The notes under the pieces were generated by a model. That model made no database searches and was not told the DNA's origin. It was given only the letters and a program-made list of their open reading frames with translations. DNA of 64,000 nucleotides from Octopus vulgaris (Eukaryota). The first letter of the stretch is position 1, and the number at the start of each line of letters is the position of its first letter. A program made the position numbers and the translations under genes. The stretch covers positions 68,696,001 through 68,760,000 of the forward strand of contig OX597826.1 of NCBI GenBank assembly GCA_951406725.2, given 5' to 3'. Shown here in pieces: positions 8,399-59,917 of this stretch.

Positions 8399-9262
8399 AT
8401 ACTAAGTAATTAAGGGTTTAGCAACGATTTGCCTCACCACACACCGAATTTAGAAATAGCAGTCAAAGAGTTATAGCTATTCTTTCTACTAAAAGGGAGA
8501 TCTCAGTAAAACCACAGCACTTGAAAGGCAAACACAAACAGGCAAGAGAGAACGAAATGACAGCAATCTATCATACAATTTTAAGTCACCTACGGACGTA
8601 CGTTTCGAGATTAAGTTTTAGGAAAGCATAAGAATTAGATAATTATGTCTTACCCAACTTCTTCTCTCATCAGCGTAGGACACTACAATTATGAATAATT
8701 GTATATTAAATTTCGAGATACTAGAAGGCATCATCTCAACTCAGTATCAGAGCGAGCTAAAACCGTTACCAGTATCACTAAATTCAAAGTGTGAATGAAA
8801 GTTCGTGTCAGCAACCCCTTCCCACCCGCGTATAGCCAAGACAAGATGTTGCGGTCATTTACTGGGATGAAATATGGTTATCAGTAATAAAATAGGGTAA
8901 AACTAATTAATTTGGAATAATCAATTAATTTCACCAAGTAGATTTCGGCATGTAAAAGCCTCGTTCGAGGAAAGTTTAAGTAATACTAAGTAATTAAGGG
9001 TTTAGCAACGATTTGCCTCACCACTTTCAAGTGCTGTGGTTTTACTGAGATCTCCTTTTAGTAGAAAGAATAGCTATAACTCTTTGACTGCTATTTCTAA
9101 ATTCGGTGTGTGGTGAGGCAAATCGTTGCTAAACCCTTAATTACTTAGTATTACTTAAACTTTCCTCGAACGAGGCTTTTACATGCCGAAATCTACTTGG
9201 TGAAATTAATTGATTATTCCAAATTAATTAGTTTTACCCTATTTTATTACTGATAACCATAT
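8399..9262 (-). mobile_element. Penelope-like pseudo-LTR composite: tandem partial repeat plus inverted copy
   Basis: 8399-8440 is directly repeated at 8984-9024 (period about 585 bp). 9024-9262 is the near-perfect reverse complement of 8399-8527 and 8872-9024. Contains a hammerhead; both ends abut TA-rich repeats. Confidence 0.75.
8589..8679 (-). ncRNA. type I hammerhead ribozyme motif
   Basis: Minus strand: CCUACG-CUGAUGA-GAGA...UCUC-GAAA-CGUACG-UC-CGUAGG. 6-bp stem I, intact core, long stem II, palindromic minimal stem III, GUC cleavage triplet. Confidence 0.85.
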
Positions 9263-13191: not shown

Positions 13192-13401
13192 TGAAATATA
13201 ATTAATTTAATAAAATTAATAAATTTCACCTAGTAGTTTATCGGTATGGAAAAGACCATATTTGGTAAGGATTATATTGATTATAATAAAGGGTTAATTG
13301 CAACAAGTTGCTCAAAACCACGAAAATGCAAGAAATGCCATTTCTAGCATTTTCGGTATGTGGTTTTGAGCAACTTGTTGCAATTAACTCTTTATTATAT
13401 A

Positions 13402-33716: not shown

Positions 33717-35465
33717 TAATATCCACTGTAATCGTTGTATTATCGACTGCACATCGTCATATTGTCTACAGCATATTTCTATATTGCCAACGGTATATAC
33801 TTATATTACCAATGGAATATCGCTATGTTCACTACAACATATTGTTTCAATACACATAGTATTTACTTTTATTATTCACAGCATTTCATTACATTATCTA
33901 TGGCATTTTCTAATATTATCTACTGTATTTCGTTATATTAGTTATAGTATATTGTAAATGTTGCCATAAATTGCAGAGTTGTAATCCCTAGGATCTGTTA
34001 AAATGCAAAGGAATAGGACTAGTTTTCCTCACCCAGCTGGCTAGGAGTCTGTAACCTAGACAACCAAATCAAAGATTTAGAAACCGCGCATACAGATTAT
34101 TGAATAATTGAAGCATAATAACAAGATGCGCAGTCATGTTCAAATACGGGAGTGATAATTATTTCATCTTCAGTTAAATGAGGCTCAAGTAATTACCCTA
34201 ACTTTTCAAGAGAATTTGGTCCTATAAATTCTGCTAAGTAGAAACAATTTCATAAATTTCGAATTTTGTCAAACACACCACGGCAATAAGCGTTAAGCTT
34301 TTTGTCAAGCGTTAAATAAAATTAAAATATTTTAGTCGTGCGACTATTTACTTCCAATATGGCAACGAAAGCTGTTTATTTATATTTCATTAAAATCGTT
34401 AAATCATCATACACCAAAGAAATTTTCTTAGAGATATTTTTACCAAATGATTCACGTAAAACATGCAAACGAAAGCTTCTTTTACACAAATAGACTTAAG
34501 AATTTTCAAACCGGAACGCTGACCAAAGATTGATTTCCGGTGCGCTGCACAAACGGTATGCATGGATCCTCATTTGACAAATATATTCTCTCGCTGTATT
34601 CACGTGTTCTCTTCAAATTCGCGATCTTTGTCTTCGTTCAACGCCATCTGCAGACCGTTTCCTTCCTCGTTTCTATATATTCACGAGATCACATACCGTC
34701 TTATCTGTTTGACCCCTAATCACCTTGCAACGATATTTCTGATAACATTGCACTTGCTATCTAGGATTTCCCAAGTTATTAATGGTACATTCTAGATTTC
34801 GTAAAGAAAACATTCGTAAAACACATTTTCGTTAAAGGAGATACGTAATTTACACACAACCTATACATATATATATATATTTACACACACATATATGCAT
34901 ATATATTTATCTATACACGCACAGATTCATACACGTACAGTCGCATCAACACACACGCTCACACACACATATATGCACATAGCAATGAGTATTACTGGTA
35001 CTTTATGTTATCTTTGTCGGTTTATAGTGAAAGCAAGGTCTTCGTCATTGTTGTCTGTAGCTTGCCGCATTAAAATCTGAAAACACCGCTGCACATGCTA
35101 ATAGCCTTGTGGAGAGATCACTTGATTCAATGTCTCAGTATGTAAGCCTTGGAATCAGATATCGAGAGAGCCTTATTGTTCTTCGATAATGACATTTTTA
35201 AAAATTGAAATGGTAATAAAATTCTATGTTTTTGCGCTTTTCAAAGCTTCTGTTTATCTTTAGAGAAGCTGGTAATTGCTTTCGCTGTTGTTCAGCCTAA
35301 AGGGGGCTCTAAACCGCGAACACCTATAAGGTAACCGGAGAATGTAAATATACACGTTATCTTAGATCAGGAAAGTTGACTGAAGAGAATCCATTTTTTT
35401 ACATATACTTTACTGATTTTTATTTATATATAATGATAAATCTCAGAGCGGCAACACATCGTGAC

Positions 35466-35716
35466 GTATATTTGCCATTTGAATATGGCTAACCCCTAAG
35501 GGTGGATGCTGCTGTAGTTTGTAGCCCCAGGAAGACACCTCCTCCAGCTGGCTATAGACACACTTTCTGCGCCCTATCAGTATTTGTGAAGGGAAGTCAT
35601 CCTTCCCGTCTTCAACTTATGATACACACGGACTCGATGATAGGTCAATACCTTGAAACTCGAGTCCGTGTGTATCATAAGTTGAAGACGGGAAGGATGA
35701 CTTCCCTTCACAAATA
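35466..35716. mobile_element. fold-back PLE-pLTR-like element with a perfect 57-bp inverted repeat
   Basis: 35581-35637 is the exact reverse complement of 35660-35716. The 22-nt spacer carries hammerhead core sequence; the right end runs into (TA)n. Confidence 0.65.
35624..35674 (+). ncRNA. type I hammerhead motif with damaged 5' core at a fold-back junction
   Basis: ACACACG-GACUC-GAUGA-U-AGGU-CAAU-ACCU-U-GAAA-CUCGAG-UC-CGUGUGU. GAUGA, stem II, GAAA, palindromic stem III and GUC are present; C3U4 is altered. Confidence 0.6.
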
Positions 35717-35889
35717 TATATATATATTTATAAAAACCACAACCACTAGCACTAATTCCAAGACCACCACCACAAACCCCCACAACAACAACAATAATAA
35801 TGATTGTTATTATTATGAAAATATTATTATTACTATTATTATTATTATCACCATCATTATTATTATTATTGACATAAGTTAAGAGAAAA

Positions 35890-58401: not shown

Positions 58402-58405
<4 letters not shown>

Positions 58406-59146
58406 TAAAAATCACAATAAGGGTGAAAAAAATTGAATATTAATTAATAGCATCAATTTAAAACACCAAGTGGCCTAGCGTATAAAAAGACTGGGATACA
58501 GTAAAAATTATTAATACAAGTAATAAGACAGAGACCACATGTGGTCACTCTAACGCTAGATATAGATCCGCAAAGGGAATCCACCACTAAAGAATTGTTC
58601 TCAAGCATTAATTCAACACGCCAATAATGTAAGCGGGCACGACAAATGAAAAATAACGGAAAAATAGATTAACTCTATACAATTGTTTCATCGTTAATAG
58701 ATTGTGTAATTGTACTTACATAATCATTTTCGAATCTTCAGTAGAGTATATCAAAAATATAATTTGCTGAGCCGAATGCCAGAATCCATACGAAGCCGAG
58801 AAAAGGCGAACGGCACAGCCGATTATATTTGCAGTTACGTTCAAATATCCTCATTTCTGGAACGTTGAAAATACCGGATGTAAATACTACCCCAGTAATT
58901 TACTGCCGGTTTGAGAACATATTAATTTATAATTAAAATCACAATAATTTATAATTTCATCTATTAACGATGAAACAATTGTATAGAGTTAATCTATTTT
59001 TTCGTTATTTTTCATTTGTCCTGCCCGCTTACATTCTTGGCGTGTTGAATTAATGCTTGAGAGCAATTCTTTAGTGGTGGATTCCCTTTGCGGATCTATA
59101 TCTAGCGTTAGAGTGACCACATGTGGTCTCTCTTTTATTACTTGTA
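58402..59146 (-). mobile_element. Penelope-like pseudo-LTR composite: short direct repeat plus inverted copy
   Basis: AATTAAAA(A)TCACAATAA at 58403 and 58931. 58959-59146 is the reverse complement of 58515-58702. Hammerhead inside; (TA)n on both sides. Confidence 0.75.
58672..58747 (-). ncRNA. type I hammerhead ribozyme motif
   Basis: Minus strand ACUCUA-CUGAAGA-UUCG...CGAU-GAAA-CAAUUG-UA-UAGAGU. 6-bp stem I, intact core, long stem II, palindromic stem III, GUA triplet. Confidence 0.8.
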
Positions 59147-59917
59147 TATATATATACATATATATATATTCATATTTGGCAGAAGTAAAAGAGTTACCTA
59201 AGGATTAAATATTTTGTGCGTTGGTACTTATCAATTATTTTGAGCTTTATTTTTACCTATTTGCCTCATCAAACCTTTGTGAGTGTGTATGTCTAAGTGT
59301 GTATGTGTGCGCATATGTATGTATGTATGTTGTTTCTACCTGCGTGTGTTCCTTTGTGTTTGTCTCCCATCTTCACCTGACATCTGGACTGTTTGCTCAA
59401 GCCCTGTAACAGAGCTGCTCGGCTAAAGAGTTCGATGGAGTCAGTACCCGACTTTAAAACGTAACTAGCATTGTCTATTTATTCAGCAAAAGCTCGAAAT
59501 TTTGCGCAGCGGGCTCAAACTTGAAATCATGTGGATGTAGTCCAACGTCTGGATTACATAGCTATACATTGGACAATAGAGATCCCTAATTATCGAGTCG
59601 AAATTATACTCAATTATGGCTCTACTCATAACACACTTGATCTTCGCCAAAACACCAATACTAACAACATTAGGCTATTACAGTATTTGTCATTTGAACT
59701 TCATTAAATTACAATGTTTATATTTGCTGTTTGCCTCAAATGTAATAATAAACATTATTTATTGGAATTTATCAGTATTTATATTTAATTTTATTGCTTT
59801 CTTATTGTTGATTCACTCAATGTCACGTTCTGTCCACCAGACATGATTTATACCATTTCATTCTTTACCATCGCAGATTGTCACTGAGGTCTCAGCAGCA
59901 AACATACATTTGATATA

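Follow-up and report, generated by a model that had tools for sequence, protein, structure and literature searches.

Unequal outer ends of head-to-head retrozyme insertions in Octopus vulgaris point to twin priming by a Penelope-type enzyme

Introduction

Animal non-LTR retrozymes are described as non-coding tandem units of 150-450 nt, with a GC content below 45% and a type I hammerhead whose palindromic stem III has 1-2 bp (PMC7229834), and phylogeny ties retrozymes to Penelope repeats (10.64898/2026.07.22.740005). Endonuclease-bearing Penelope-like elements are known for an inverted, 5'-truncated head-to-head copy, a tail of 30-40 bp at one end, insertion in (TA)n with a target duplication, and palindromes at the junction (PMC3846280; PMC8557442). 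For their inverted ends, self-priming on an antisense template has been proposed (PMC3846280), and the mechanism has been called undefined (PMC8557442). Pairs of hammerheads lying head-to-head on opposite strands have been noted as well (PMC4209133). In vitro, Poseidon PAc cuts and extends both target strands with uncut RNA as template, starting at two internal sites that bracket the tail and acting on AT-rich targets (PMC11167929). These statements, and the comparisons below, refer to the available parts of the cited texts.

The locus studied here lies in a 64,000-nt stretch of Octopus vulgaris DNA, which we call the window. It is a copy of a 352-nt repeat, family A; a second family in the window, family B, has a 524-nt unit. 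Family A resembles animal non-LTR retrozymes in unit size, GC content (42%), stem III, self-pairing (z -6.7) and larger target duplications (PMC7229834; 10.64898/2026.07.22.740005). Families A and B insert head-to-head, end at two fixed sites and carry a tail on one side only; the available parts of those two descriptions mention none of these features for retrozymes. The hammerheads found here also differ in that they are known from sequence, and in that C occupies core position 4 in about half of the copies. Family B, with its long stem II, exceeds the retrozyme size range given in 2020 (PMC7229834) but falls within the 51-972 bp of a preprint (10.64898/2026.07.22.740005).

Both families share with endonuclease-bearing Penelope-like elements the inverted, 5'-truncated head-to-head copy, the tail at one end, (TA)n targets, the target duplication and the junction palindromes (PMC3846280; PMC8557442). 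Their tails, of 43 nt (A) and about 106 nt (B), are longer than those reported for these elements, and their units lack an ORF. With Poseidon PAc they would have in common two start sites around the tail, cutting and extension of both strands, AT-rich targets and an uncut RNA template; unlike A and B, the available report on this enzyme gives neither joined inverted products nor the use of different sites by the two strands of one event, and it found start sites alike on both strands (PMC11167929).

Results

Anatomy of the palindromic insertion

As originally predicted, positions 35581-35637 and 35660-35716 match one another in reverse complement over 57 of 57 nucleotides; the next outer pair is mismatched, and the spacer (35638-35659) is 22 nt long. 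When exact, non-low-complexity inverted repeats of at least 18 nt with arms less than 2 kb apart were counted in the 64-kb window, this palindrome was one of 11 and had the shortest spacer among them. The predicted fold of its 76-nt centre has an energy of -42 kcal/mol (z -9.7), and 0 of 200 shuffles were equally stable. The features of the locus are as follows.

35432-35716: head-to-head insertion of the 352-nt family A repeat in (TA)n
35432-35637, minus strand: left arm, a family A copy running from unit position 216 (the long 3' end site) to 346, by segmentation and sequence
35432-35457, minus strand: what is left of the one-sided 43-nt tail; family ends pile up on either side of this tail, at the short (173) and long (216) sites
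35635-35637: inversion junction, likely with a 3-nt microhomology, CGA, present in stem III of the left arm and in the CCGA core of the right arm
35638-35716, plus strand: right arm, family A, from the hammerhead core (about 321-324) to position 50, by segmentation
35635-35672, plus strand: type I hammerhead motif, truncated by loss of C3 and of the 5' side of stem I; the cut is predicted to fall between 35666 and 35667
35581-35716: perfect palindrome formed where the arms overlap, with 57 bp on either side of a 22-nt spacer
35717-35731: (TA)n target remnant on the right side, from sequence

A short TA run also precedes 35432, and according to the segmentation the RNA 3' ends of both arms face outward into TA. 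The left arm, which has a 17-nt deletion near 35447-35450, ends at position 346, 7 nt beyond the predicted cut site, and the right arm crosses that site by about 30 nt. Because both arms cross it, their template was not a cleaved monomer. The right arm ends at position 50, at a CAAATA hexamer next to (TA)n, in place of the usual short site. The same hexamer precedes ends at 163-164 in five other copies and resembles the short end of an autonomous element in this genome. An end at position 50 is atypical, since none of 39 other scored candidates (of 931) continues into TA there by more than one base, and the window copy therefore cannot be scored for the short/long rule described below. The right arm is likely short through mis-priming at the hexamer or through later deletion back to it, both of which fit.

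This arm ends within 1 nt of the edge (position 51) of a natural imperfect hairpin, which suggested that the hairpin had been made perfect after insertion. That possibility was ruled out, as the left arm is one continuous minus-strand copy through that point.

The original prediction also held that only C3U4 of the hammerhead had been replaced by the inverted arm. The junction does lie inside the hammerhead core, but everything 5' of the core has been replaced; the inverted arm resembles the 5' strand of stem I only through being complementary to the other, 3' strand of that stem. The window copy thus lacks C3 and the 5' strand of stem I required of a type I hammerhead, and since the perfect hairpin pairs the cut triplet, its hammerhead is predicted to be inactive. 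Among four DNA runs, contigs cover 35200-35476, and hence the left junction, in three (one under another organism label), and the central junction is bridged by 0 contigs. The locus is an ordinary dead copy; it adds a member to a retrozyme family and shows a Penelope-type inverted insertion, the layout itself being known.

The family A unit and its hammerhead motif

The 352-nt unit was defined from an array with eight consecutive 352-nt spacings and a hammerhead motif in each unit; unit position 1 is the base after the predicted cut. A first look at the 2.8-Gb assembly gave 1835 candidates, and a 23-nt anchor had at least 942 exact matches, against 0 for its reversed control. The unit is non-coding (longest stop-free stretch, 81 codons), has a GC content of 0.42 and folds as a circle with a z of -6.7 against 40 shuffles. 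Family A therefore has the properties of a non-LTR retrozyme, namely a short tandem unit that carries a hammerhead each time and is non-coding, low in GC and self-paired. No shared element body was found upstream of single copies, and 13 ORFs of the window gave no Pfam match. Family contigs with a unit-to-unit joint, which a circle and a tandem array yield alike, occurred in all four runs guessed to be RNA.

Homologues carry, in order, stem I, C(U/C)GAUGA, stem II, GAAA, a palindromic stem III and UH. The complete stems and core bear out the hammerhead reading of the junction and spacer. In 67 complete passes from 55 loci, the core was conserved at C3 (67/67), G5 (64), A6 (65), G8 (66), A9 (67), GAAA (65-67) and U16 (67), and position 4 was U in 28 and C in 39. 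Pairing was kept in 62-67 passes for stem I, 63-66 for stem II and 65-66 for stem III. Stem II shows a two-sided change from A-U to G-C (40 vs 25) together with G-U wobbles, a covariation in which one inherited change is counted many times. Family A thus has the core and the three stems of a type I hammerhead and is predicted to be self-cleaving. In the available part of a published report, U4C, a natural variant, lowered activity in vitro and yet permitted viroid infectivity (PMC3088659).

An uninverted core reading CUGAUGA had been predicted, and it was found, nearly letter for letter. Homologues with the stem II of the window copy, however, mostly have CCGAUGA (15, vs 4 with CUGAUGA), so that the window junction likely contains the CGA microhomology.

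The Rfam hammerhead models matched neither the intact family A unit nor a family B copy at E values up to 5. The ribozyme call therefore rests on motif and covariation. A scan of the whole window gave no hammerhead among the 150 of 328 matches listed; the matches were microsatellite-driven microRNA noise and a sub-threshold microRNA match to the hairpin itself.

Other repeat families of the window

Family B shows no BLAST likeness to family A. Its copy in the window comprises three features.

58404-59147: family B head-to-head insertion in (TA)n, 524-nt unit; the left arm starts at the long site
58959-59147: family B right arm, ending at the short site
58672-58747, minus strand: intact family B hammerhead motif with long stem II, by segmentation and motif

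Units of this family measure 525-528 nt in the repeat, with a longest stop-free stretch of 63 codons, a GC content of 0.34 and a circular fold z of -6.5 against 40 shuffles. The inverted arm at 58959 begins in the long stem II region of the hammerhead motif, in agreement with the original prediction.

A third repeat family (8399-9190) also has head-to-head arms in (TA)n, with a right arm that extends past the end of the left arm. It carries a hammerhead-like motif at about 8585-8680 on the minus strand, and its turning point, near 9023, is likewise away from that motif, by about 350 nt. The window further contains a 29-bp perfect inverted repeat with a 38-nt spacer and AT-rich flanks (13293-13388).

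Head-to-head insertions combine one short and one long end

As a guard against sampling bias, we used exact anchors located close to the 3' ends, took their matches in the order of the genome and split the loci into segments by jumping alignment. For family A, the first 100 anchor matches were taken from a set of 942 and from a second set of 419, and all 118 distinct loci among them were included; one duplicate with identical flanks was dropped, and one array was left out of the rate tests. For family B, the first 100 of 184 matches contained 77 loci, of which we took 63. Loci found with the palindromic query were excluded as a breakpoint sample because that query is biased towards junctions centred on the ribozyme; a few of them entered again by way of the position-ordered samples. 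L039 and L041, about 373 kb apart on the same contig, have near-identical flanks and represent one insertion, with a segmental or assembly duplicate.

Head-to-head copies made up 68 of the 117 family A loci (47 had one orientation and 2 another layout) and 41 of the family B loci (18 and 4, respectively). Their outer ends pile up at positions 173 and 216 in A and at about 164 and 270 in B, where likeness to TA blurs the long site; the interval between the two sites forms the one-sided tail of 43 nt and about 106 nt, respectively. Sixty of the 61 classifiable A insertions (of 68) pair a short with a long end, one is short+short and none is long+long. In B the corresponding numbers are 31, 2 and 0 for 33 classifiable insertions (of 41). 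Compared with an expectation of 50%, the deviation has a p of 5e-17 in A and 1e-7 in B. Further A samples gave short+long in 14/14 and, with repeats removed, in 7/7 and 11/12 (one long+long). Neither arm contains the other in 39/60 A and 17/31 B insertions.

The inverted and 5'-truncated copy and its one-sided tail are accompanied by the other marks of a Penelope-type insertion. TA is present on at least one side of 55 of the 68 head-to-head A loci, and of 13 A insertions in non-TA targets, 10 lie between direct repeats of 11-15 nt; in B, a target duplication is clear in 0-1 of 6 non-TA insertions. The hammerhead-bearing, Penelope-type inverted insertion of the original prediction is thus supported by the layout of the family.

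Junction microhomology was recounted on clean junctions only, since strict junction calling over-calls insertions in diverged copies; its mean was 1.85 nt against a null of 0.75 in A (48/68 junctions) and 1.77 against 0.76 in B (22/41). The two arms of an insertion come from one source lineage: their divergence from each other is half that to other copies, and rare variants common to both arms number 15 vs 1.1 expected in A and 17 vs 0.9 in B. Any shared rare variant was seen in 9/43 A and 10/32 B insertions, and these variants show no A-to-G bias (1/15 in A, 2/17 in B). Of 182 A arms, 33 exceed one unit, and 67 of the 82 A arms that reach position 10 continue for at least 15 nt past the cut site.

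Inversion breakpoints do not cluster at the ribozyme

Inner ends were counted only for arms passing the anchor (113/136 in A, 69/82 in B). Inside the ribozyme there were 12 inner ends vs 13.1 expected in A and 12 vs 12.7 in B. The stopping rate, about 0.5-0.6 per 100 nt, is roughly constant along the unit, and no 12-nt window of the inversion arms was significant after scan correction. Breakpoints had been predicted to cluster at the ribozyme; what we found is the uniform distribution set beforehand as the contrary outcome. In a second sample, made up of 27 arms that extend beyond the cut, 5 ends lay in 314-351 vs 5.8-6.8 expected. Both inner ends fell in the ribozyme at 1 of 68 A and 2 of 41 B junctions, and junctions fell on predicted stems in 5/68 cases vs 3.4 expected (A) and 0/41 vs 1.0 (B). 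In the window copy, both cDNAs probably happened to stop near the ribozyme, and the turning point lies there largely by chance, a coincidence expected in a few percent of copies.

Close to the cut the picture is slightly different. Ends at most 5 nt from it numbered 7 vs 3.3 in A (p 0.05, uncorrected) and 2 vs 1.9 in B. Within about 10 nt, A had 16 vs 10.6 (p 0.07, for a window chosen post hoc), an independent sample of 27 A arms 7 vs 3.3 (p 0.05), and B 7 vs 5.4. Over this distance the frequency of ends may thus be raised some 1.5-2 times, perhaps about 1.7-fold, and the ribozyme may have a modest local effect without being a driver of inversion. Near-symmetric junctions (within 25 nt) were mildly in excess in A (17 vs 11.3, p 0.037), and in B they were not raised (6 vs 5.0).

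At the base of the long stem, ends seemed to accumulate (A 44-55, 16 vs 7.7; B 60-71, 12 vs 4.2), but with scan-corrected p values of 0.44 and 0.22 this signal was rejected. Among single-orientation A copies, the second pass gave 5 ends vs 0.7 in 196-207 (scan-corrected p 0.009), one unreplicated window that lies between the two start sites.

At one locus, L216 (1384-1420), both arms end exactly at the predicted cut (position 1). Short templated inserts, taken from the first 1-36 bases after the cut site, are present at the junctions of L216, L066, L240, L245 and L043. Three further loci (L306, L307 and L308), to which the query is biased, are joined inside one natural 16-bp stem (36-51 with 270-285), and natural stems therefore sometimes supply the joining homology. 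These three are independent events that yielded an almost identical chimeric unit.

Discussion

A proposed origin from two primed cDNAs, and rival explanations

We propose that the insertions arise head-to-head through a Penelope-type reverse transcriptase-endonuclease, from two cDNAs started at two fixed RNA sites and joined by microhomology, and we put the probability of this reading at roughly three in four. The enzyme would cut both strands of a (TA)n target in a staggered manner, and each cut strand would prime one cDNA, at two fixed RNA sites that in family A are 43 nt apart. The template would be an uncut multimer or a re-joined circle of retrozyme RNA, both cDNAs would stop at random along the unit, and their 3' ends would be joined by short microhomology, by end-joining, as the last step. 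Simultaneous and sequential priming fit the sequence pattern alike, as do a circle and a multimer as template. The in vitro behaviour of Poseidon PAc and the presence of intact reverse transcriptase-GIY-YIG elements in this genome speak for the proposal; that none of the 50 GIY-YIG loci searched proved to be an autonomous partner speaks against it.

A similar scheme is known from L1 elements: each of two target strands primes a cDNA, and joining of the two cDNAs by microhomology produces an inversion. The arms of L1 twin priming derive from neighbouring stretches of the RNA that for the most part do not overlap, and the position of the second site varies, whereas in families A and B both sites are fixed and the arms overlap, which produces the palindrome.

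One rival, and the cause named in the original prediction, is that stem I or the palindromic stem III of the ribozyme makes a single cDNA fold back and copy itself. This would account for a window junction that lies inside the core and for a 3-nt homology that involves stem III; combined with loss of most of the right arm it can draw the window locus taken alone, and the mild excess of near-symmetric junctions in A and the query-biased loci joined inside the 16-bp stem also speak for it. A strand that folds back must, however, give equal outer ends and nested arms, and equal ends were seen in only 3 of 94 classifiable insertions. The arms that do not contain one another (39/60 and 17/31) exclude it geometrically for those insertions, and L004, whose junction geometry is that of the window copy and which is the closest look-alike, has a long left and a short right end. 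Neither the breakpoint clustering at the ribozyme nor the consistent nesting of one arm in the other that ribozyme-driven fold-back calls for was found: there is no excess at the ribozyme in two families, nor past the cut site (5 vs 5.8-6.8), and the third window family turns away from its hammerhead motif. Unequal ends and non-nested arms favour two primed cDNAs; fold-back is largely refuted as a general mechanism, and we consider it improbable. The same count of equal ends bears on a two-step origin, in which integration of one cDNA comes first and priming of the other arm follows, either within that event or on a second visit of an enzyme, on another RNA of the same source locus, with host end-joining. 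Microhomology, the small templated junction inserts and the shared variants fit such a course, as does the fact that a shared rare variant occurs in only 9/43 A insertions. Independent events would nevertheless give short+short or long+long half of the time, in place of the 3/94 observed, and a single target duplication brackets the whole head-to-head unit; we find the two-step course unlikely.

Ribozyme cutting itself could set the junction if cDNAs ran off the 5' end of self-cleaved RNA. The locus with both ends at position 1, other ends at 2, 2 and 3-5, and the mild excess near the cut would be products of such run-off, which may hold for a minority of copies. As the general explanation it is very improbable, given that 67/82 A arms run through the cut site, and at the window locus it is refuted by the sequence of the arms, which pass the site by 7 nt and about 30 nt. 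We attach equally little credence to an assembly or library chimera produced by fold-back. The perfect arms and a centre spanned by 0 contigs are what an artefact would leave, but the spacer and the left arm contain family sequence beyond what fold-back of a read supplies, the left junction is present in three other runs, and this layout recurs, under a strict end rule, at 68 of the 117 family loci.

For Penelope-like elements, the available parts of the literature cited above already describe the inverted copy, the tail at one end and the palindromic junctions; what is added here is a near-absolute rule of unequal ends in two retrozyme families. We found no paper that states a two-primer rule for Penelope or retrozyme inversions, judging from titles and abstracts and with most subscription journals outside the search. 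The rule matters more at the level of the families than the window locus itself, and its occurrence in two unrelated families goes beyond what self-priming can produce. It makes the question of the Penelope inverted ends directly testable with the existing in vitro system, and it lends a mechanistic signature to the recent view that Penelope elements carry animal retrozymes along.

More broadly, a Penelope enzyme may insert animal retrozymes by copying a single RNA, uncut or circular, two times, with a fixed start site for each of the two cut DNA strands. Obligatory twin priming with one short and one long end would then be the missing mechanism of the inverted ends and one-sided tail of Penelope elements, and ribozyme cutting would mark only a minority of ends. 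To us the arguments for and against this wider proposal are evenly poised; if it is true, twin priming ties retrozymes to the Penelope machinery by mechanism and not by sequence likeness.

Penelope-like elements as candidate partners

The units of families A and B contain no ORF for a reverse transcriptase with GIY-YIG endonuclease. A search for an autonomous partner covered 50 GIY-YIG loci (from 148 matches; 150 of 6136 candidates scored), and none shared a terminal repeat with A or B. Both family A matches in these loci lie apart from the ORFs, and the one in L382 is a separate insertion.

An intact 781-aa frame with reverse transcriptase and C-terminal GIY-YIG was found in 16 of 20 loci, L366 (2245-4590) and L367-L381, which are about 98% alike; this Penelope-like family is young and autonomous. 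It lies in (TA)n with two 3' ends separated by about 37 nt, and a pattern search found no canonical hammerhead in it. In a second Penelope-like family (L382:4800-4850, L384), a hammerhead-like motif shows the CCGA core variant described above, its stem III is palindromic, and in L382 a 766-bp perfect inverted terminal copy is present.
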